A DNA stretch of 64,000 bases from contig JBFRWI010000160.1 in the NCBI GenBank assembly GCA_051439505.1, forward strand, positions 1-64,000, given 5' to 3'. Below, in pieces: positions 15,564-32,928 of the stretch (within the stretch, counting starts at the first letter, position 1; every line of letters starts with the position of its first letter). Under the pieces are notes generated by a model that did no database searches, had not been told where the DNA came from, and saw only the letters and a program-made list of their open reading frames with translations. The DNA is from Hormoscilla sp. (GTDB lineage Bacteria; Cyanobacteriota; Cyanobacteriia; Cyanobacteriales; Desertifilaceae). The position numbers and the translations under genes are program-made.

Positions 15564-15613
15564 GTTTGTAGTTGCGCTTTAGCGCCTCTAGGTTTGTAGT
15601 TGCGCTTTAGCGC
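15564..15613. repeat. Tandem GTTTGTAGTTGCGCTTTAGCGC x2 (GTAG-hairpin REP-like)
   Basis: Related GTAG-hairpins at ~20837, ~26778-26832 and ~45141. Confidence 0.75.
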
Positions 15614-16039: not shown

Positions 16040-16756
16040 ATGACAACGAACAAAGTCAAAGTCATTAGCTTTTCGGGTGCGTACATAGACGCGAAGTACG
16101 TTGAAAATGTGGAAAACTATCCCATTAAGAACCGTACTATCGTCGTTAACCCAGAAGAAACAGACGCTTACCTGAACGAAGCGAACGTCAGCATTATTCC
16201 GTCTTTCTCATCGACCATCCTGGAAGATACTACGATCCAAAAAGCCAAGTCATTGCTTTTGCTTGAGGTGGTACAGACCAAAAACATCGGCAATATTGTC
16301 TTTGAGCCTGGGTGGGATTTATTAGGTAATTTCCCCGACGAGGACTTTCCCAAAGACGTACAGCTTTGGAAGTCGGGCCAAGATGAGGCGGGAATAATAG
16401 AAGTAGATCCCTACTTTATGGCCAGGCAGTCGAGTACCCCCGGTCACAAAGAACAGTTCTGTGTGAAAGTGAACCTCTGGTTTGCCCCTTCCCATACGGA
16501 TTGTGCAATCCATAACCAACATGACTTTCTGGAGATTCACACGCAAGTCTTCGGACATGGACGGATGCAGAAGTTCAAGGTGAAAAGTTTTGAGAGTCTC
16601 TATGAAGACCTCGTGATGACTGAGGGATACACCCAGATCGTGCCATTCTGCCAGGTTCACGAAAACCAGCAATATACCTATCCGTGGCATCAATATTATT
16701 CGGATACGGATTGCATCTGGATGGCGATCGAATATCATCCCCAAAAAAAAGGCTAA
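16040..16756 (+). CDS. Stand-alone cupin resembling the cupin domain of fungal aldos-2-ulose dehydratase/isomerase (AUDH)
   Basis: NLWFAP..TDCAIHNQHDFLEIHTQV.G.G.MQKF and YPWHQYYSDTDCIWMAIEYH motifs, recognised from memory. Confidence 0.7.
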   Translation: MTTNKVKVISFSGAYIDAKYVENVENYPIKNRTIVVNPEETDAYLNEANVSIIPSFSSTILEDTTIQKAKSLLLLEVVQTKNIGNIVFEPGWDLLGNFPDEDFPKDVQLWKSGQDEAGIIEVDPYFMARQSSTPGHKEQFCVKVNLWFAPSHTDCAIHNQHDFLEIHTQVFGHGRMQKFKVKSFESLYEDLVMTEGYTQIVPFCQVHENQQYTYPWHQYYSDTDCIWMAIEYHPQKKG

Positions 16757-16800
16757 CGCCAAGGCCAAAGCTAACGAGAACTAAACAGAAGAGTCACACA

Positions 16801-19800
16801 ATGGCAAGCAATATTTTTCCAAGCAATCGCGTTTATAAATTTCTCAACGTCGAGGAATACTTTGACGGATATGGTGGCTACAAAGCATGGGATAAACTCG
16901 GAGATGCAAAAAGTCCTTCCTTTGACGGGAAATATACATTGAGCCTGAAGTTCGACAAGGCCAGTGGAGGCGAGTGCCTCATGTTGATTGAGATCAGTCA
17001 GAACGATGTCTTGCGGGTGCGCTTTAACCCAACAAAAAGTGCAGTAGGGGATTACGCCACATCCACTCACCTGGACGATCACGAGACAGACGAGGAGATC
17101 CTGAGGAACAAGCAACGCACTGTAACTTACAAAAATAACGGAAATCAGGTAGTCCTGACGGCGACTAGCCAGTATAATCAGGTTGGCAAGGATACACCCT
17201 TCGTGATGGAAGTGGCGATCACTTTGGCTCCATTCGGAATCAAGGTGTTCAACAAATCTAAAAGCAATTCCGAGTTTGCAGACATTCCCGTCTGGCAAAC
17301 CGCAGACACTTCAATTTACTACACCGCCAATGGCACAGAGGATTATGCCATCATCCAGGCGGTGAAGAAGCCAGCCGATGGAAAGTATATTGGGTTTGGC
17401 GAACAGGGCGGAACCCAACTCGGCAAAAATATGGACCGGTTGAATTATTTCAACTTCGATAACATGCGCTATCGACAGGTCTATAATCGCGGACCTTTAG
17501 AGAACCGCGAACCTCTTTACCACTCCGAGCCTTTCTTTTACGAGTTCAATGGCGTTGCTGGCAGCGATAACGTCAATGCAGTCCTCGTGGACAACCCGAG
17601 TCAAGTCTTAATGGATATCGGCTATAGCAACGCCGGTCGCTATATGTTCGGGACTCGCTTTGGCGACCTTGACTATTACGTGTTGTTGGGAGAAGACCCG
17701 AAGAATATTTTAGATAGCTTTACCGCCTTCATCGGTCGCCCGGAGTTGAAACCGCGCTACGCCCTGGGATATCACCAAGGTTGCTATGGGTACGAATGTG
17801 CGGCAGACCTCAAGTGGGCTGTGGAAAAATATCGGGAGTATCAAATTCCCCTTGATGGTCTTGCGGTGGATGTGGATCTCCAAGAAAACTACCGGACTTT
17901 CACCATCAAGCCGGATTACCAAACGAATAAGAACAACCGGTCTGAGCAAACCTTCGGCAGTCACAAGGAAATGTTCAGTTGGTTGCGGGAGAAGGGAGTT
18001 AAGTGCAGCACCAACATCACCCCCGTGATCAGCAGCCAAGATAAAGACAACCCAAGTCACTACTCAACCTACGACGAGGGACTCAAAAACGGCTACTTCG
18101 TGATGGACAAGCGGTACGATCCAGACAATCCCGAAAGCAAAGAGTACCAAATCTATGGTGGCGGTAACGAATACCGTTCCAACAAAGAATGGTATCAGTG
18201 GCCAGATCCCGAAGGATTCAATAGTGGCAACCCTTACATTGGCGAAGTATATTACGGGGACTACAATGGAGAACCGCTGGGAAGCCCGGGTCATTACTCC
18301 GATCTAGGCCGTCCAGAAGTGCGCGAATGGTGGGGCAAGCAATATAAATACCTGTACGAGCAGGGTCTAGAATTTGTTTGGCAGGATATGACTACTCCAG
18401 CTATCCGCGACACCCGTGGAGATATGAAGGGCTTTCCATTCCAGCTGTATGTGACTAACGACTTTTACCCCTCAGACGTCAAACAAAGCCCAGCCCTCAA
18501 GGTTTGGAATTTGTATTCGTACAATCTCCACAAGGCCACCTACGAAGGACTCAATAACCTGTACCAACTATCCGACGAACTGAAGTGGCGGGAAAACAAG
18601 CGCAACTTTATCATCGGACGAGGCAGTTTTTGTGGTTCTCACAAGTATGCTGGCTTATGGACCGGGGATAACTCCTCAGAATGGGATTTCCTCCAGATGA
18701 ATATCTCCCAAGTCCTGTCTCTGGGCATGAATGCCTTGGCAGTCACCGGGCAAGATATCGGCGGTTTTGAGCAAGAATCTGGTAACGACGAGCAGGGTTG
18801 GGCGAGTCCAGAACTGTTGATTCGCTGGACTGCTGCGGGGGCCTTCTTACCCTGGTTCCGCAACCACTACGTCCGCAAAGGGCGCAAAGATTTCCAAGAA
18901 CCATTCCAATATGTAGAGTGGTTTAACGGCAATCCCCCAGCACCCCAAGACTTGTACCGCATGGTTCCCGACATTTGCCGGCATTACATTGAATTGCGCT
19001 ACCGGCTGATGCAGCTGTTCTATGATGCATTGTTTGAGAACACCCTGGATGGTATGCCCATCTGTCGTCCCTTGTTCCTCAACGATCCTCAAGACAAGTC
19101 TCTCTACAACGATAAAGACCAATTCCTCAACGACGAGTTCTTTGTTGGCAAGGATTTCCTCGTTGCTCCAGTCTTGCGGCCTCAGAGTGAATGTAATGGT
19201 GGCAAGCGGGATGTCTATCTGCCCCAAGGTAGCTACTGGTATAACTTCAAGAACAACGTTCAGTCCCTGACCGCTCCGGAAGAAGGCGGAACGGTGTTGC
19301 GCGATTTTGATGCCAACATCAATATGGAAGGCCAGCACATTAACTTTATCGTTCCCATCTACATCCGGGAGGCAGCGATTATTCCCACAATCGAGCTGGA
19401 ACAATATGTGGGAGAACGGAACGCCAATGGACAGACGAACCCCATTACCCTGAACGTATATCCAGACGTGCAGCGGAATGGAGGGGAATATCATATGTAC
19501 TTGGATGATGGGGAGAGCCGTTCTTCTGCCCCGAAATCTCAAGTGGACGATCCCAAGGCGAACGACGAATACCGCCACACTGTGATTACCAACGCATACA
19601 GTGGGGACAAGACCCGGGTGATTAAAGTAGAGCGGGTCCACGACGGATATACGCCTATGGAGGACTTTTTCTTCGTAGCAGTATTGCACGATCCTGGCGA
19701 ACAAAAGGGAACCCACGGTCCGTTGACGAGCATTAGTATCGGCACGCAACAGCTACCGATTGTGAGTGACAGTGGTGCCCTCTGGGGTTCTGGCAGCAAC

Positions 19801-19890
19801 AGCTGGTATTACAACGAGAGCCTCAACATCAGTTTCGTCAAGGTGTTCGATAGCAGCAAGTCGATCGCCATCAAGGCGAACTACGTGTAA
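16801..19890 (+). CDS. GH31 enzyme, alpha-1,4-glucan lyase-like
   Basis: Nucleophile motif VWQDMTTP; acid/base region WTGDNSSEW; NYFNFDNM.Y.QVY..G.L..REPLYHS.PF, YSYNLHKAT and RNHYV.K.RK.FQEP segments resemble algal/fungal lyases; likely start ATG 16801. Confidence 0.85.
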   Translation: MASNIFPSNRVYKFLNVEEYFDGYGGYKAWDKLGDAKSPSFDGKYTLSLKFDKASGGECLMLIEISQNDVLRVRFNPTKSAVGDYATSTHLDDHETDEEILRNKQRTVTYKNNGNQVVLTATSQYNQVGKDTPFVMEVAITLAPFGIKVFNKSKSNSEFADIPVWQTADTSIYYTANGTEDYAIIQAVKKPADGKYIGFGEQGGTQLGKNMDRLNYFNFDNMRYRQVYNRGPLENREPLYHSEPFFYEFNGVAGSDNVNAVLVDNPSQVLMDIGYSNAGRYMFGTRFGDLDYYVLLGEDPKNILDSFTAFIGRPELKPRYALGYHQGCYGYECAADLKWAVEKYREYQIPLDGLAVDVDLQENYRTFTIKPDYQTNKNNRSEQTFGSHKEMFSWLREKGVKCSTNITPVISSQDKDNPSHYSTYDEGLKNGYFVMDKRYDPDNPESKEYQIYGGGNEYRSNKEWYQWPDPEGFNSGNPYIGEVYYGDYNGEPLGSPGHYSDLGRPEVREWWGKQYKYLYEQGLEFVWQDMTTPAIRDTRGDMKGFPFQLYVTNDFYPSDVKQSPALKVWNLYSYNLHKATYEGLNNLYQLSDELKWRENKRNFIIGRGSFCGSHKYAGLWTGDNSSEWDFLQMNISQVLSLGMNALAVTGQDIGGFEQESGNDEQGWASPELLIRWTAAGAFLPWFRNHYVRKGRKDFQEPFQYVEWFNGNPPAPQDLYRMVPDICRHYIELRYRLMQLFYDALFENTLDGMPICRPLFLNDPQDKSLYNDKDQFLNDEFFVGKDFLVAPVLRPQSECNGGKRDVYLPQGSYWYNFKNNVQSLTAPEEGGTVLRDFDANINMEGQHINFIVPIYIREAAIIPTIELEQYVGERNANGQTNPITLNVYPDVQRNGGEYHMYLDDGESRSSAPKSQVDDPKANDEYRHTVITNAYSGDKTRVIKVERVHDGYTPMEDFFFVAVLHDPGEQKGTHGPLTSISIGTQQLPIVSDSGALWGSGSNSWYYNESLNISFVKVFDSSKSIAIKANYV

Positions 19891-19936
19891 GATAGAGTTG
19901 GGTTAGGAAGTCCTAATTCAATCATCTTCGGTGAGT

Positions 19937-19982
19937 GAGAGCGAGTCGGATAAGAGCGATAACTAGCTTCCGACTCGCTCTC
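19937..19982 (+). terminator. 14-bp perfect stem-loop after the lyase gene (terminator or mRNA stabiliser)
   Basis: GAGAGCGAGTCGGA / TCCGACTCGCTCTC; only a weak U-tail. Confidence 0.55.
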
Positions 19983-20065
19983 CTAGTTTGTCTGTGCTTT
20001 AGATAACCAAGCTTTATCTGGGATAAGCATTGTGAGTTTGTTGAAGAGTTGTCAGGAGATAGTCG

Positions 20066-20602
20066 ATGAGTTCTATAAATCCTTTGGGGATTTGGAAGTG
20101 GTTAAAAGCCGGGATCTTAACTACTGCGATCGCGATCGGGCTTTGCTGCGCGTGTTTTGCAAATCCAGTCCTGGCGGATGCTTCTGTTGGGAACGCGGAA
20201 CCGATCTCGAACAATTTGGTGGCCTATTACCCGGGTGCAAATGAAACGACAGAGGAAACGAAAAAGTTATGGCAACACCACATTAACGCATGGGAGGCAC
20301 GAGACTTAGATGGCATTATGACTGAATATCGGGAAGACTCCATATTTATTCGGAATAATAAGGTTTTCAAAGGGATTGCAGAAATCCGCAGTGTTTTTCG
20401 TAATCTCTTCGGCTTATTTGACAATGGCAGTAACATCATCGATCCTGCTGTGCTTGAAGAAGAAATTATCTACATTACTTGGCACTTTACGCCTAACAAC
20501 GATCGCGAGTACTATGGAACGGACAGCTTTGTCGTGCAAAACGGCATCATTAAATACCAAACGATTGCTTCTCTACTGTATGAAAAATACTTAGTAGAAT
20601 AA
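20066..20602 (+). CDS. SnoaL-like / NTF2-fold protein with signal peptide
   Basis: Hydrophobic N-terminus ending PVLA-D; HHINAWEARDLDGIMTEY and GTDSFVVQNGII motifs. Confidence 0.8.
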   Translation: MSSINPLGIWKWLKAGILTTAIAIGLCCACFANPVLADASVGNAEPISNNLVAYYPGANETTEETKKLWQHHINAWEARDLDGIMTEYREDSIFIRNNKVFKGIAEIRSVFRNLFGLFDNGSNIIDPAVLEEEIIYITWHFTPNNDREYYGTDSFVVQNGIIKYQTIASLLYEKYLVE

Positions 20603-20867
20603 AAACCCTAGATATCTGAGGTTCGATGTAATTTACATCATGCAGCTATTCCCCTTATTGACTGCGTGATTTGTCGAGACAGAAAATACAAAAGCATCTG
20701 TCTCGGCCAAGATATCAATTACTTCTGCTAACTTCCCTTCTTTGTTGAAAACGAGCAGCCGATCGAGGCGATCGCCCGATGAGAGATGTTGAATAGGAAC
20801 AGTATAAATCTTGGGTATCATGGGTTATATTCGTTCGTAGTAAGCGCTTTAGCGCTTATTTGTCAGA

Positions 20868-29850: not shown

Positions 29851-32800
29851 TTACCTTTCATATTCCTGGGCGTGATGTTCGCAGAGCCACAAGTAATGCC
29901 CTTCTGGGGTTAACACCTTCCGCAAACCTCCCCAATGCTGCTGGGGGTCTTTTTCATCCAAAAGTTGGCGCAAGGCTCGCAGCGGGGCCCCCTGGATTCG
30001 CTCTGGCCCGAATTCTTCTGCCATACCACCCCTCTCTCTTTCTCGATTTTCTCCGCCCTCTAGTTGGGGCAAGTTGGCTACTATTTCTTGCATGTATTTT
30101 CTATCCTGACTGAGCAGTTTTTCATAAACTTCTGGGTTGCCATAACCTAGAGTCAGACCTGCTACAGGATGAGCATATTTTAATAATTTTACTAATTTGC
30201 GCAGATATGGTGCCATTACTCGAAACCACTCGGCGGGGACTGTTATTTCATAGTCACCGCCTGACTCTGTCGGATGCCAACAACCGGGCGCTTGACAGTA
30301 TAGTTGCAATTGCAATTTCTGCCCCTTAATGGCCCGTTTCCAGTTGCTCGCTTCTTGGGGACGCAGCACAAATATATTCGGACAATGGGATTCTATTTTC
30401 TCTTGTTCCAGCCGGAAAGCATTGGTGAATTCTCGTTGTATTAGTTTGAGCATCTCTATTTGCATGGCGAGAATGTCGTGCTGTCCCTTGGTTAATTGCT
30501 CGATGTGGGATAAGATGAGATCCCCCCCAGCCCCCCTTACGAAGGGGGGAGCATGAAACCCCCCCCTTCCTAAGGGGGGTTGGGGGGGATCTTCCGTCTC
30601 CCCCCTTCCTAAGGGGGGCTGGGGGGGATCCTTCGTTGGGTTCAGGTCTAAGCCTAACAAGAGTTTTATTACTGAGATATCTTCTAAGCAGGCCGGACAT
30701 TCTATGGTATGCTTGTTTTTCTCATACCGTTTCTCTAATTGCTGGTAGTCGAATTCGTGGCGGCAGGGTTGACTGTCGCCACAGGGACAGGGTATTGTAC
30801 GTTTTATCTCTAATCCGGGAAATCGTGCTAGGGTTACCTCGATGCCGTCTTTGAGCAGGGCGAAGAAGTTCTGGGGGTTGGCTCCTCGGACGATTAATTG
30901 GAGTTCGTGCTGATGGGGAAATGCCTGCACTAAGGCGAGATGTTTGGGTGCTGTTGGTTCGTCGGCCAGCAGGGCTCCTTTGCGCCAGTGGATGCCTGTA
31001 GAAAAACGGTGTTGACGGGCTATAGACCAAGTGGGAATGCCTGCGGGCAGGGTATTCATCTTCCATTTCACGGACATTTCATTGCAGTTGTTCCTGGTTT
31101 TGATGGCGTCCCATTTGTCTTGGTATTTGGGGGGAGACAGGGGCAAGCGTTCGACTACCAGACTGACATCGGAGGTCTCAAATTCGGTGCGAATGCGGTA
31201 GGATAGGTCAAATCTCTCCATCAGGCGCAGGAAATGTTCGCTTATTGATGGTTCTATGTCTGCCCAGAGTTGTGCCATGTGGGGGCGGGTGAATATGCCG
31301 GAACGGTGTTGGACTTCTTGACTTTCTAATACTTTGCTGATCTGTTCTGTCACCCATTGGGGCTTGAGGATGACGATGTTTTGCAGTTCGGGGTGGTCCT
31401 GGAAGTAGAGTATGTCCCCTAGTTCGTGCAGCCATTGGGCGAGGACTGACTGACTGTCGTCCGATACTTTGTGGGCTGTCATGATGTAGTTTAATTGTCC
31501 CAGGGTGATGTATTCTCGGGAATGCTTGCGGATGGCTTTGGCTGCATTCAGCCAAGTTAGGGGCCAAGTTTCTCCCATTAAGGGCATTTGGGCAGCGGTG
31601 TCGGCTATTAATTGTCTCAGGGTATCGATGCCCGCGCCGGTGCGGCTGCTGATGGCGCAATGTCCTTTTATTTGGGGATATTGTTGGCGTAAGTCGCTCT
31701 CTGGAAGGTCGGGGGAACGCTCGTCGATGTGGGTGGCGACGAGTAAAATGGGTGAGTTGGGTGCAACTGCTTTGATGGTGTTGAGCCAATAGTAGAGTTG
31801 ACTTGGTTCAAAGCCCAGTCGCGCATTCCAGGCGAGGAGAAACAGGGAGCGGTTGGAGAGAAAGAATTGATGGGTGGCGTGATAGATTTGTTGTCCGCCA
31901 AAGTCCCAGGCGTTCAGTTGCATGGTGACAGGCTGTTTCTCCTGACGATTTCGCCCTTTTCGTTCAAATAGTCCGAACAACTTCTTAGTCTTGCCAGGTA
32001 TCGTGAGTTCTAATGTCTCTGTAGGATGGGTGAATTTCAGGGTGCGGATGGCAATGCCGTGGGTGGTTGATTCCTGGGGGTTGAAGGGTTCGCCTCTGAG
32101 GGCGCGTAATAAGGATGTCTTGCCAACTCCGCCTTCGCCTACGACTATGAGTTTGGAAACCCATTGGGGTTGTTTTGCTGGTAGCTGTGATCGCAGATAG
32201 GCGAATACTGTTTCTATGCCTTGGTATAGAAGCTCTGGCGGGGGCGAGGTTAGGGGATTATGGCCCAGGTATAGCCCTTTGGGAGTAGAATAAATGTTTG
32301 GATTTTTCTTGATATCTAGTCTTCTCAGATTGCGCAGTTGACCGATTTCAGGTGGCAGCGCCGTTAGTTTATTATTGTGGAGGTTTAGCTGTGTCAGATT
32401 GCACAGTTGACCGATTTCAGGTGGCAGCGCCTTTAAGAGATTATTGTAGAGGTATAGCTGTGTCAGATTGCGCAGTTGACCGATTTCAGGTGGCAGCGCC
32501 GTTAGTTGATTATCACGGAGGTTTAGCTGTGTCAGATTGTGCAGTTGACCGATTTCAGGTGGCAGCGCCGTTAGTTTATTATTACTGAGGTTTAGCTGTG
32601 TCAGATTGTGTAGTTGACCGATTTCAGGTGGCAGCGCCGTTAGTTGATTATCACTGAGGTATAGCTGTGTCAGATTGTGCAGTTGACCGATTTCAGGTGG
32701 CAGCGCCGTTAGTTTATTCTTCCAAAGGATTAGCCTTGTCAGATTAGTCAGTTGACCGATTTCAGGTGGCAGGGCTGTTAGTTTATTCCCGTTGAGGTTT

Positions 32801-32928
32801 AGCTGTGTCAGATTGCGCAGTTGTCCAATTTCAGGTGGCAGCAAACTTAACCATTCCGATAAGTCAAGGGATGTTACCCTATCCTTGGCTGCTTTTTCAA
32901 TAATTCGGAGCAGTTCTTCGTTAGTCAT
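29851..32928 (-). CDS. Roco protein (LRR-Roc GTPase-COR)
   Basis: 23-aa LRRs; GEGGVGKT P-loop; TTHG; WDFGGQ..YHATHQFF; THID; COR region; WLCEHH C-terminus. Confidence 0.95.
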   Translation of the reverse strand: MTNEELLRIIEKAAKDRVTSLDLSEWLSLLPPEIGQLRNLTQLNLNGNKLTALPPEIGQLTNLTRLILWKNKLTALPPEIGQLHNLTQLYLSDNQLTALPPEIGQLHNLTQLNLSNNKLTALPPEIGQLHNLTQLNLRDNQLTALPPEIGQLRNLTQLYLYNNLLKALPPEIGQLCNLTQLNLHNNKLTALPPEIGQLRNLRRLDIKKNPNIYSTPKGLYLGHNPLTSPPPELLYQGIETVFAYLRSQLPAKQPQWVSKLIVVGEGGVGKTSLLRALRGEPFNPQESTTHGIAIRTLKFTHPTETLELTIPGKTKKLFGLFERKGRNRQEKQPVTMQLNAWDFGGQQIYHATHQFFLSNRSLFLLAWNARLGFEPSQLYYWLNTIKAVAPNSPILLVATHIDERSPDLPESDLRQQYPQIKGHCAISSRTGAGIDTLRQLIADTAAQMPLMGETWPLTWLNAAKAIRKHSREYITLGQLNYIMTAHKVSDDSQSVLAQWLHELGDILYFQDHPELQNIVILKPQWVTEQISKVLESQEVQHRSGIFTRPHMAQLWADIEPSISEHFLRLMERFDLSYRIRTEFETSDVSLVVERLPLSPPKYQDKWDAIKTRNNCNEMSVKWKMNTLPAGIPTWSIARQHRFSTGIHWRKGALLADEPTAPKHLALVQAFPHQHELQLIVRGANPQNFFALLKDGIEVTLARFPGLEIKRTIPCPCGDSQPCRHEFDYQQLEKRYEKNKHTIECPACLEDISVIKLLLGLDLNPTKDPPQPPLGRGETEDPPQPPLGRGGFHAPPFVRGAGGDLILSHIEQLTKGQHDILAMQIEMLKLIQREFTNAFRLEQEKIESHCPNIFVLRPQEASNWKRAIKGQKLQLQLYCQAPGCWHPTESGGDYEITVPAEWFRVMAPYLRKLVKLLKYAHPVAGLTLGYGNPEVYEKLLSQDRKYMQEIVANLPQLEGGENRERERGGMAEEFGPERIQGAPLRALRQLLDEKDPQQHWGGLRKVLTPEGHYLWLCEHHAQEYER
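30519..30630. mobile_element. GATC-bounded C/G-tract palindromic element inserted in frame (+108 nt, 36 aa) in the Roco gene
   Basis: GATC at both ends; removal restores NPTKDLILSH; related element at ~4764-4840. Confidence 0.88.

Follow-up and report, generated by a model that had tools for sequence, protein, structure and literature searches.

Organization of the gene cluster

Within the analysed window, a stretch of 64,000 nucleotides of Hormoscilla DNA, three genes form a compact cluster on the + strand, separated by a short spacer and by a region with a stem-loop:

16040..16756, + strand: stand-alone cupin of the AUDH (aldos-2-ulose dehydratase/isomerase) type, 238 aa (AlphaFold model, Foldseek, VIA-align, profile alignment, hhalign)
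16757..16800, + strand: 44-nt spacer from the cupin stop to the lyase ATG (read from the sequence)
16801..19890, + strand: GH31 enzyme, probably of the alpha-1,4-glucan lyase type, 1029 aa (Pfam, PDB match, catalytic residues)
19937..19982, + strand: perfect 14-bp stem-loop between the lyase and SnoaL genes (inverted repeat)
20066..20602, + strand: SnoaL/NTF2-like protein, 178 aa (Pfam SnoaL_2, fold, alignment)

The ORF coordinates confirm the three co-oriented genes and the 44-nt first gap described in an earlier sequence-only reading. The mechanical ORF of the lyase gene starts further upstream, at a GTG at position 16684 within the cupin gene, and the length of 1029 residues is counted from the ATG. 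The spacer is 89% identical in the loci of two relatives and is spanned by one contig of an RNA library. RNA evidence is weak: the stretch is present in a single library from one study, and its contigs stop short of the SnoaL gene and the 3' end of the lyase gene and are uninformative on expression there. The flanking HAD, GNAT, ABC and HisD genes are not retained beside the cluster in the relatives' loci compared. A scan for promoters and terminators stayed at chance level (9 versus 7.8 and 5 versus 5.3 expected, respectively), and a search of Rfam gave no match.

Linkage of cupin and lyase across genomes

The arrangement is not due to chance. Of 35 cyanobacterial genome loci, 28 have a lyase match, one of them a remnant, that starts 23–332 nt past the match to the cupin, and, when loci are collected from the lyase side, the cupin lies directly upstream in 25 of 40. 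Co-occurrence in other genomes, which the sequence-only reading had implied, is borne out by the presence of the lyase in 27 of the 35 cupin-bearing cyanobacterial genomes versus 2 of 400 sampled others. Coupling of the two genes is not obligate, since a lyase was not found in 8 of the 35 cupin-bearing genomes and five bacterial-looking metagenome lyase loci show no cupin upstream; the metagenome loci L107, L109, L110 and L113 were judged on unextended sequence. A plasmid search for the lyase at E≤1e-60 gave no match.

Distant members of the cupin family reside in sugar-catabolic loci together with GMC oxidoreductases, GH3 enzymes, Gfo/Idh/MocA proteins and a TPP enzyme, whose assignment as IolD or as cyclohexanedione hydrolase failed. 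WecB-like neighbours were considered as a source of 1,5-anhydro-D-fructose (AF) from UDP-glucose; this is unsupported, as KasQ, which is related to them, fails to turn over UDP-Glc (PMC8869731). Next to the cluster of Oscillatoria princeps, no ORF resembling a pyranose oxidase stood out by eye.

The GH31 protein carries lyase-type active-site residues

The second gene encodes the sole GH31 protein found in the Hormoscilla genome (PF01055, E 3e-69, 234 bits against a cut-off of 23.5), in which a signal peptide is not evident. Its best single-GH31-domain match in the PDB is the lyase of the red alga Gracilariopsis lemaneiformis (EC 4.2.2.13, 2x2h), with E 4.9e-60 for the sequence and E 2.1e-75 for the family profile. 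The margin over GH31 hydrolases is modest (258 versus 224 bits), and a summed score places the two-domain maltase-glucoamylase first among the PDB matches. The Hormoscilla protein and the algal lyase are alike in length (1029 and 1027 residues) and share the WQDM nucleophile motif as well as an AVDVDxQxNxRxFT stretch.

The lyase-type motifs noticed in the sequence-only reading are all present, namely KCSTNIT (N405), WQDMTTP (D529, T532) and WTGDNSS (D623). Both catalytic aspartates, the nucleophile D529 and the acid D623, are in place, and an Asn and a Thr of the lyase type occupy the positions of the Ile and Glu of hydrolases. All 120 homologues conserve D529, T532 and D623, and N405 is conserved in all but one. 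Lyases reportedly lack the water-activating Glu three residues past the nucleophile and carry Val or Thr instead, as Rozeboom is said to have described in 2013. At this position Thr is found in all 120 homologues and Glu in the controls (IDMNE in 9kz6, WNDMNEP in the hydrolase L122); the residue is small and non-acidic in both the Hormoscilla and the algal enzyme, with Val in the latter. Lyases possess an Asn at the N459 position, which is Ile in hydrolases (PMC12441222). N405 aligns with the Asn of the TNIT motif in 2x2h, whereas maltase-glucoamylase has Ile there; the equivalence to N459 involves an offset of 11 residues between chain index and published numbering, inferred from D553.

The gene could alternatively encode an ordinary alpha-glucosidase or transglucosidase, with the cupin handling side products. 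Public records name the protein 'alpha-glucosidase' or 'TIM-barrel domain protein', its best NCBIfam match is MalA, although far under the cut-off, and traces of AF are released by GH31 hydrolases (PMC12441222). However, the hydrolase-type Glu occurs in none of the 120 homologues, the Asn is retained in 119, and linkage and fusion to AUDH parts (see below) would be left unexplained. In a quick tree, which contained one hydrolase and no characterised lyase, the protein groups with eukaryote-like homologues, those from metagenomes being 44–45% identical, while L122 sits on a very long branch outside. An ordinary hydrolase is thus improbable. The GH31 gene is probably of the alpha-1,4-glucan lyase type and would cut stored glycogen to AF; families of glycogen synthase and phosphorylase were found in the same genome. 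Unlike the Gracilariopsis enzyme and the fungal lyases of Morchella and Peziza, it is bacterial and located in an operon with a cupin.

The cupin resembles the cupin domain of AUDH

The AlphaFold model of the first gene product (pLDDT 95) has the AUDH of Phanerochaete chrysosporium (PF18637, PF22301) as its closest structural neighbour. Foldseek returned 4a7z and 4a7k as the top two matches (E 1e-8, TMq 0.63), and a comparison with 48,161 chains by VIA-align gave AUDH a Z-score of 17.4 (rmsd 3.5), followed by 10.3 for the next protein. In the superposition, 217 of 238 residues are aligned to residues 454–734 of the AUDH chain with 16% identity. Moreover, alignment with eukaryotic AUDHs by hhalign gave a probability of 98% (E 2e-13, 94 columns). 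A predicted metal site of H158, H161, E165 and H217, together with H167, is aligned in the profile alignment with H630, H632, E639 and H709, together with H641, of 4a7k; the spacing has one residue more between the first two histidines and fewer before the Glu. The four residues H630, H632, E639 and H709 are presumably the Zn ligands of AUDH. In 74 diverse relatives, H158, E165, H167 and H217 are invariant and H161 is retained in 70.

Sequence profiles gave a less uniform picture. Against PF18637 (AUDH_Cupin) the cupin reached 10.9 bits (E 0.29) and hence not the gathering score of 25 bits, and no other meaningful Pfam match was obtained. As the PF18637 search of the Hormoscilla genome misses the cupin, Pfam alone would wrongly reject it. 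Among 62 close relatives, 59 match this family at E≤1 (best 2.2e-4), and a selection of 73 further relatives contains 14 with a match at E≤0.01 and one that exceeds the cut-off. In sequence searches of the PDB, solely a broad profile reached 4a7k (E 0.044); the single cupin sequence gave no match, a profile of close relatives merely two nanobodies at E about 1, and the sequence P0341 nothing useful. Of the proposed stand-alone AUDH cupin, fold and metal residues therefore stand, whereas a match to the Pfam model does not. By predicted fold and by profile, the protein is AUDH-cupin-like. It differs from the fungal enzyme in being a separate protein of 238 residues.

No beta-propeller was found in the genome

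The sequence-only reading had cautioned that the second part of AUDH, the beta-propeller, is missing from the window, and this caveat extends to the whole genome. In the Hormoscilla assembly (93.4% complete) the propeller, which has seven blades in AUDH, was not found with PF22301; the same profile was positive in 14 of 50 other genomes. The propeller protein of a relative reached a best E of 0.014, and an 11-sequence propeller profile yielded short repeat matches only (E 0.002).

In some relatives, AUDH propeller genes adjoin the cupin-lyase pair. They match AUDH residues 19–430 (E 1.9e-75) and retain the equivalent of His155. In addition, a lyase-propeller-cupin fusion occurs in Pelomyxa (P0410), and at locus L101 a propeller is fused to the same cupin type as that of Hormoscilla, beside a lyase. 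A propeller gene or remnant is present in 7 of the 27 cyanobacterial genomes with lyase and cupin; in the other 20, finished chromosomes included, none was found. Trichodesmium erythraeum IMS101 and Nostoc sp. ATCC 43529 are propeller-less, and Oscillatoria princeps and Mastigocoleus have propeller and cupin as separate proteins. Because the complete split pathway of adjacent propeller, cupin and lyase genes is restricted to a minority of relatives, the Hormoscilla cluster is a reduced form.

The cluster might instead be the decaying vestige of an operon of propeller, cupin and lyase that no longer works as a pathway here, and in several relatives one or another of the lyase, SnoaL, propeller and cupin genes is indeed broken or incomplete. 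However, the three Hormoscilla ORFs are intact and retain their catalytic residues, and propeller-less clades in a quick tree are several and deep. Relative to propeller-less relatives dN/dS is far under 1; for the cupin, 16 of the 17 propeller-less pairs that allowed an estimate give 0.07–0.28. Judged by these ratios, the cupin remains under purifying selection without a propeller, and decay is highly improbable.

The SnoaL/NTF2-like protein is an optional member

The third gene product matches SnoaL_2 (E 9.8e-08, 33 bits against a cut-off of 27) and adopts a predicted NTF2/KSI-like fold, with 7e85 as nearest structure (Foldseek E 8.5e-10) and a TM of about 0.7–0.8 to the superfamily. It belongs to a narrow subfamily tied to the cluster, which was not found in any of the 400 genomes sampled from the phylum but occurs in 12 of 48 cupin-bearing genomes (12 of the 35 cyanobacterial ones). 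H72, Y88 and D153 are invariant in the subfamily alignment. Compared by eye with the motifs of ketosteroid isomerase (KSI), the protein shows an Asp in the oxyanion-hole position and no clear catalytic base. Residues 1 to about 37 resemble a Sec signal peptide, again by eye. A signal-like N-terminus, which would fit the exported protein of the sequence-only reading, is seen in 7 of 12 copies and is absent from the other 5. The gene is a real but optional cluster member.

SnoaL and propeller never occur together: among lyase and cupin genomes, SnoaL is found in none of the 7 with and in 11 of the 20 without a propeller (Fisher p 0.02, among related, non-independent genomes). This pattern would fit a scheme in which the cupin retains the role proposed for it in fungal AUDH, as an isomerase that converts ascopyrone M to microthecin, and dehydration is provided by SnoaL or by an unlinked enzyme. 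NTF2-fold dehydratases exist, e.g. scytalone dehydratase. The lack of any subfamily match in the 400 sampled genomes points the same way, as does the fact that AF does not readily dehydrate spontaneously under mild conditions (PMC8056936). However, nine of the 20 propeller-less genomes also lack an intact SnoaL match, and the apparent signal peptide, with none on lyase or cupin, would place the Hormoscilla protein in a separate compartment. Furthermore, a strong hairpin separates the SnoaL gene from the lyase gene, dN/dS of SnoaL is higher than that of the cupin (0.29–0.46 in six pairs with the Hormoscilla copy), and no dehydratase is among the top fold matches listed. A division of labour of this kind is therefore rather unlikely.

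Proposed anhydrofructose pathway

A dedicated anhydrofructose pathway is known from fungi and red algae (PMC12441222). The overall sequence-only reading of a lyase-type GH31 enzyme co-occurring with a stand-alone AUDH-type cupin is supported. The cluster may represent a small accessory operon of patchy distribution that encodes a bacterial counterpart, in which glycogen is converted to AF and the cupin acts on AF directly; the probability of this reading is estimated at about 0.5. It draws on the lyase residues, the fold and metal-site match of the cupin, the linkage, the fusions, the propeller-less genomes, the cupin dN/dS and the presence of glycogen enzymes. This suggests a shortened bacterial version of the fungal pyrone pathway that employs half of AUDH only.

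In the first step, which is very likely, the cytosolic GH31 enzyme would become glucosylated at D529 and then eliminate rather than hydrolyse, releasing AF from glycogen or malto-oligosaccharides. Given this step, it is somewhat more likely than not that the co-transcribed cupin, a divalent-metal enzyme, probably with Zn, and homologous to the AUDH cupin, acts on AF without need of a beta-propeller. The most likely reaction would be loss of the C4 hydroxyl by beta-elimination, yielding ascopyrone M, which would settle as ascopyrone T. A third step is doubtful: acting after the cupin and, in the Hormoscilla lineage, outside the cytoplasm, the optional SnoaL protein might bind the pyrone or convert it further, e.g. 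towards ascopyrone P as a tautomerase of the KSI kind. Later accounts of Yu et al. 2004 (PMC8056936, PMC12441222) describe an anhydrofructose dehydratase and an ascopyrone tautomerase in the fungus Anthracobia melaloma. As far as these accounts give it, the fungal route has a lyase, then a dehydration step that forms ascopyrone M, and in addition a tautomerase; it resembles the roles suggested above for cupin and SnoaL, a purely functional conjecture. Relatives that retain the propeller would have all AUDH reactions as far as microthecin. As no propeller was found in the Hormoscilla genome, microthecin would not be the product expected by default and is doubtful here.

Several points count against this overall reading. 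Claesson et al. are said to have proposed in 2012 that the AUDH propeller harbors the dehydratase site and the cupin the isomerase site, which is the opposite of the second step. The low identity and sub-cut-off Pfam score of the cupin, the modest margin of the lyase, the non-obligate coupling of the two genes and the broken genes in relatives also weigh against the reading. The specific claim of a minimal two-enzyme pathway in which AF is dehydrated by the stand-alone cupin rather than by the propeller is tentative.

AF itself or derived 1,5-anhydroglucitol might also be the useful product, without any pyrone, the cupin then tautomerising or isomerising keto-anhydrosugars or detoxifying reactive 2-keto sugars. 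The first lyase product is an enol that subsequently tautomerises, sugar isomerases are common among the cupins in the VIA-align comparison, and the distant cupins lie in sugar-catabolic loci. In Moorena, moreover, a cupin persists under purifying selection (dN/dS 0.19–0.28) where no lyase accompanies it. However, tautomerisation of the released enol is spontaneous (PMC12441222), the closest cupin structure is by a wide margin AUDH and not an isomerase, and the same cupin type adjoins or is fused to AUDH propellers. A pathway ending at the anhydrosugar is therefore unlikely.

If direct conversion of glycogen-derived AF is correct, the operon would give cyanobacteria a third way to break down glycogen and would be a simple source of small pyrones with antibacterial activity in lineages including Trichodesmium and animal symbionts; such activity is documented for microthecin (PMC13765081). 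For the production of anhydrofructose from starch, a glucan lyase of bacterial origin would be a handy catalyst. Since AUDH occurs in nature split into separate genes, one of which was repeatedly lost, two small soluble proteins would suffice to test which site performs which reaction. Should the cupin prove to be the AF dehydratase, the proposed division of labour inside fungal AUDH would have to be revised, and some 200 unannotated bacterial cupins would gain a function. Marine and symbiotic cyanobacteria would then make glycogen-derived ascopyrones, the SnoaL protein would be an unrecognised ascopyrone tautomerase, and eukaryotic AUDHs would represent two fused bacterial genes.

A conserved stem-loop downstream of the lyase gene

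The region between the lyase and SnoaL genes is unusually stable, with a folding z of -4.4 and none of 200 shuffles equally stable. Its stem-loop (19937..19982) has no U-tract and is present as a single copy in the Hormoscilla genome. Of 6 aligned loci, 5 retain it, and 2 of its 18 pairs are changed on both sides. The hairpin probably stabilises the 3' end of an mRNA or acts in attenuation.

Organization and surroundings of the cluster

The three co-oriented open reading frames previously recognized from the sequence alone could be confirmed, the first two being separated by 44 nt:

16040-16756, + strand, cupin gene (238 aa)
16801-19890, + strand, GH31 gene of predicted lyase type (1029 aa)
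20066-20602, + strand, SnoaL gene (178 aa)

This three-gene cluster is real and conserved, and its chemistry is predicted to be a variant of a known pathway. Each gene is single-copy in its own genome (6.47 Mb, 93.4% complete), the GC content of the cluster is unremarkable, and a conserved 14-bp hairpin is located between the lyase and SnoaL genes. The neighbouring genes, encoding an ABC transporter and a HAD phosphatase, are convergent or divergent, and according to locus comparison neither co-travels with the cluster. Short repeats with AGCGCTTTAGCGCT are situated on both sides (15564-15613 and about 20832-20860 of the window); because the two flanking intergenic regions give 69 and 94 blastn matches within the same genome, they represent a genome-wide interspersed repeat. 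Elsewhere in the window, an LRR-Roc-COR type protein was recognized by eye from the translation (29851-32928).

In one public RNA library, near-identical contigs extend over the cupin gene and three quarters of the lyase gene from its 5' end. One of them (1080 nt, 2 differences) spans the cupin-lyase junction, and the genes flanking the cluster show little depth. Since these are contigs only, from one study and with possible DNA carry-over, they hint at most at cupin-lyase transcription.

Lyase-type features of the GH31 protein

According to Pfam, the protein comprises a GH31 barrel and a C-terminal domain. Its best single-domain match in the PDB is the alpha-1,4-glucan lyase of Gracilariopsis lemaneiformis (2x2h, E 4.9e-60); a two-domain maltase-glucoamylase ranks higher only through summed domains. 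A family profile built from 37 GH31 sequences gave the same ranking, with 258 bits for 2x2h and 224 bits for the next glucosidase, a margin that appears real but modest. More telling for the predicted activity are the active-site residues. In glucan lyases Asn459 assists the nucleophile Asp553, whereas glycosidases have Ile there, as described in PMC12441222. The window protein displays N405 and D529 at these positions, the acid D623, and Thr532 at position +3 after the nucleophile, which is Val in 2x2h and Glu in hydrolases; a Nostoc hydrolase used as control reads WNDMNEP. In work by Rozeboom (2013), the change from Glu to Val or Thr is said to mark lyases. The lyase-type motifs noted at first sight are thus present, and among the best 120 of 834 homologues D529, T532 and D623 are conserved in all 120 and N405 in 119. 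The source names of these best 120 are alpha-glucosidase, glycoside hydrolase 31, TIM-barrel and hypothetical protein; lyase is absent from them. A divergent cyanobacterial lyase-like GH31 (locus L074, genome G076; 32-43% identical) reads WQDMTCP and keeps the Asn, and no cupin was found in the 4.5 kb of sequence covered there.

Identity of the cupin

The nearest named relatives of the cupin belong to Hormoscilla (93-94%) and Paraprochloron/Prochloron (89-90%). The sequence-only reading had assigned it to the cupin domain of aldos-2-ulose dehydratase/isomerase (AUDH). Searched by sequence against the PDB, it gave no useful match. With its predicted model (pLDDT 95), two AUDH entries occupy Foldseek ranks 1 and 2, and superposition on residues 454-734 of the Phanerochaete chrysosporium enzyme (4a7k) yields a Z-score of 17.4 (rmsd 3.5, 217 aligned residues), the next of 48,161 chains reaching 10.3. 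The same entry is the first match of a broad cupin profile (E 0.044), whose alignment equates H158, H161, E165, H167 and H217 with H630, H632, E639, H641 and H709 of 4a7k; H630, H632, E639 and H709 presumably bind zinc. Profile-profile comparison with 24 eukaryotic AUDHs gave a probability of 98% (E 2e-13) over 94 columns corresponding to the metal-binding half. For the cupin, the ESM Atlas gives a bacterial cluster at 0.95, with PF18637 in 33% of its members. Fold, profile and aligned His and Glu residues therefore uphold the assignment, but with 10.9 bits the PF18637 score stays below the cut-off, which is 25: the protein is predicted to be AUDH-cupin-like in working, yet is not a PF18637 member by the Pfam threshold. 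In P0107 and P0116, two proteins of 377 aa, the cupin is fused to DUF6209.

Linkage of cupin and lyase

A search from the cupin side yielded 70 genome loci, 35 of them (L001-L035) from cyanobacteria. Of the latter, 28 have a lyase match that begins 23-332 nt past the cupin match, one such match being a remnant. The expected co-occurrence holds in other genomes, the lyase core being present in 27 of the 35 cyanobacterial cupin genomes versus 2 of 400 other genomes sampled evenly across the phylum; the cupin likewise occurs in 2 of the 400, and both rates are background rather than additional cases because some matches duplicate known loci. All four other genomes of the genus carry the cluster, whole or in part. 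From the lyase side, the cupin lies directly upstream in 25 of 40 partly redundant metagenome loci; the other 15 have too little upstream DNA (5), look eukaryotic (5) or look bacterial without a cupin (5). Strict coupling is doubtful, since in 8 of the 35 cyanobacterial genomes the cupin is kept and no lyase was found. Distant cupins without lyase or propeller are located in loci for sugar catabolism in Acidobacteria and rhizobia.

Distribution of the propeller domain

A 430-aa neighbour in some loci represents the AUDH propeller, matching PF22301 (E 1.7e-55) and residues 19-430 of 4a7k (E 1.9e-75) and retaining the His155 equivalent. It adjoins cupin and lyase in Oscillatoria, Mastigocoleus, Plectonema, Rivularia, Microseira (with two stops), Propionivibrio and one Gastranaerophilales genome. 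In the Pelomyxa protein P0410 a lyase-type GH31 (33% identical), propeller and cupin form one chain, and in metagenome locus L101 a propeller-cupin fusion (cupin 36% identical to that of the window) lies directly upstream of a lyase homologue; both fusions confirm the predicted partnership. Metagenome contigs with propeller, cupin and lyase homologue are L101 (3545-5824 and 6001-9115) and L102. The L101 frame is open only with TAA/TAG read as Gln, its fused cupin is of bacterial type, and its lyase nests among bacterial lyases in a quick tree. Such nesting despite a ciliate-like code suggests that the lyase was transferred to a microbial eukaryote.

The caveat that the propeller is missing from the window extends to the whole genome (93.4% complete), where three separate searches found none. 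In a survey of 50 genomes, standing for 50 of the 70 cupin loci, PF22301 matched in 14. Among the 27 cyanobacterial genomes with both lyase and cupin, 7 show a match, including a fragment and a copy with stops; none was found in the other 20, some of which are complete or nearly complete according to their record titles (L003, L020, L023). Because propeller-bearing rows stand in several separate places of the quick lyase tree with propeller-less clades among them, the distribution agrees with a three-gene ancestor from which the propeller was lost repeatedly, with transfer as the alternative. Judged by dN/dS, the cupin is not decaying without the propeller, since 16 of 18 propeller-less pairs lie at 0.07-0.28; one nearly identical pair gives 0.51 and one is saturated.

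The SnoaL gene

The SnoaL gene is a true but optional cluster member. Its subfamily was found in none of the 400 sampled phylum genomes; of 48 genomes with the cupin it occurs in 12, each of them among the 35 cyanobacteria. Eleven copies lie within the cluster locus and the twelfth at a contig end. SnoaL and propeller were never seen together, the former being present in 0 of 7 propeller-bearing versus 11 of 20 propeller-less genomes (Fisher p 0.02, a significance inflated by kinship). The predicted fold is generic NTF2/KSI-like. The protein had been described as exported: judged by eye, a signal-like N-terminus is present in 7 of 12 copies, this one included, and absent in 5.

Proposed pathway

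The lyase would convert glycogen into 1,5-anhydro-D-fructose (AF); the genome encodes members of the glycogen synthase and phosphorylase families. According to PMC8056936, unaided dehydration of AF needs harsh conditions, ascopyrone M turns into ascopyrone T spontaneously, and ascopyrone P formation requires heat or a tautomerase. Most simply, the cupin would take AF itself as substrate, without the propeller, since it is under selection directly upstream of the lyase in 20 propeller-less genomes, nine of them without an intact SnoaL match. The preferred reaction would be dehydration of AF to ascopyrone M/T, because by our chemical inference both AUDH steps are beta-eliminations beside a metal-polarised ketone. 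This conflicts with the assignment in Claesson (2012), by which the propeller reportedly dehydrates and the cupin isomerises.

A literature search, with thin coverage of the core field, found no description of a lyase-AUDH cluster in bacteria or of an AUDH cupin standing alone. By itself, the lyase may not be new, since published work reportedly mentions putative GH31 lyase subgroup members in cyanobacteria, as well as AF traces in E. coli. The window contributes the propeller-less majority form and a SnoaL subfamily alternating with the propeller.

Related gene arrangements

In five loci (L053, L059, L064, L068, L116), cupin and propeller stand with a WecB-like UDP-GlcNAc 2-epimerase in place of the lyase, an arrangement that may feed AUDH-type chemistry by another glycal-forming route; the hosts are Phytopseudomonas, Xenorhabdus, Phyllobacterium, Psychromicrobium and a Streptomyces plasmid. 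A different set of neighbours is seen in Acidobacteria and alphaproteobacteria: the cupin adjoins a TPP-dependent enzyme in 25 loci and a HisD-like dehydrogenase in 21, frequently joined by GMC oxidoreductases, GH3 and transporters for sugars. These loci (L037-L058, L063, L065-L067, L070, L115, L117) apparently constitute an undescribed keto-anhydrosugar catabolic module. Full-length AUDH-like proteins (P0389-P0405, P0410) are on record from bdelloid rotifers, and fused forms carry a GMC oxidoreductase domain in the annelid Dimorphilus, an alpha-amylase domain in a record from an alga and the lyase-type GH31 in Pelomyxa. On the eukaryote-like contig L109 (242-1185 and 6001-8488), propeller fragments lie head-to-head with a lyase homologue.
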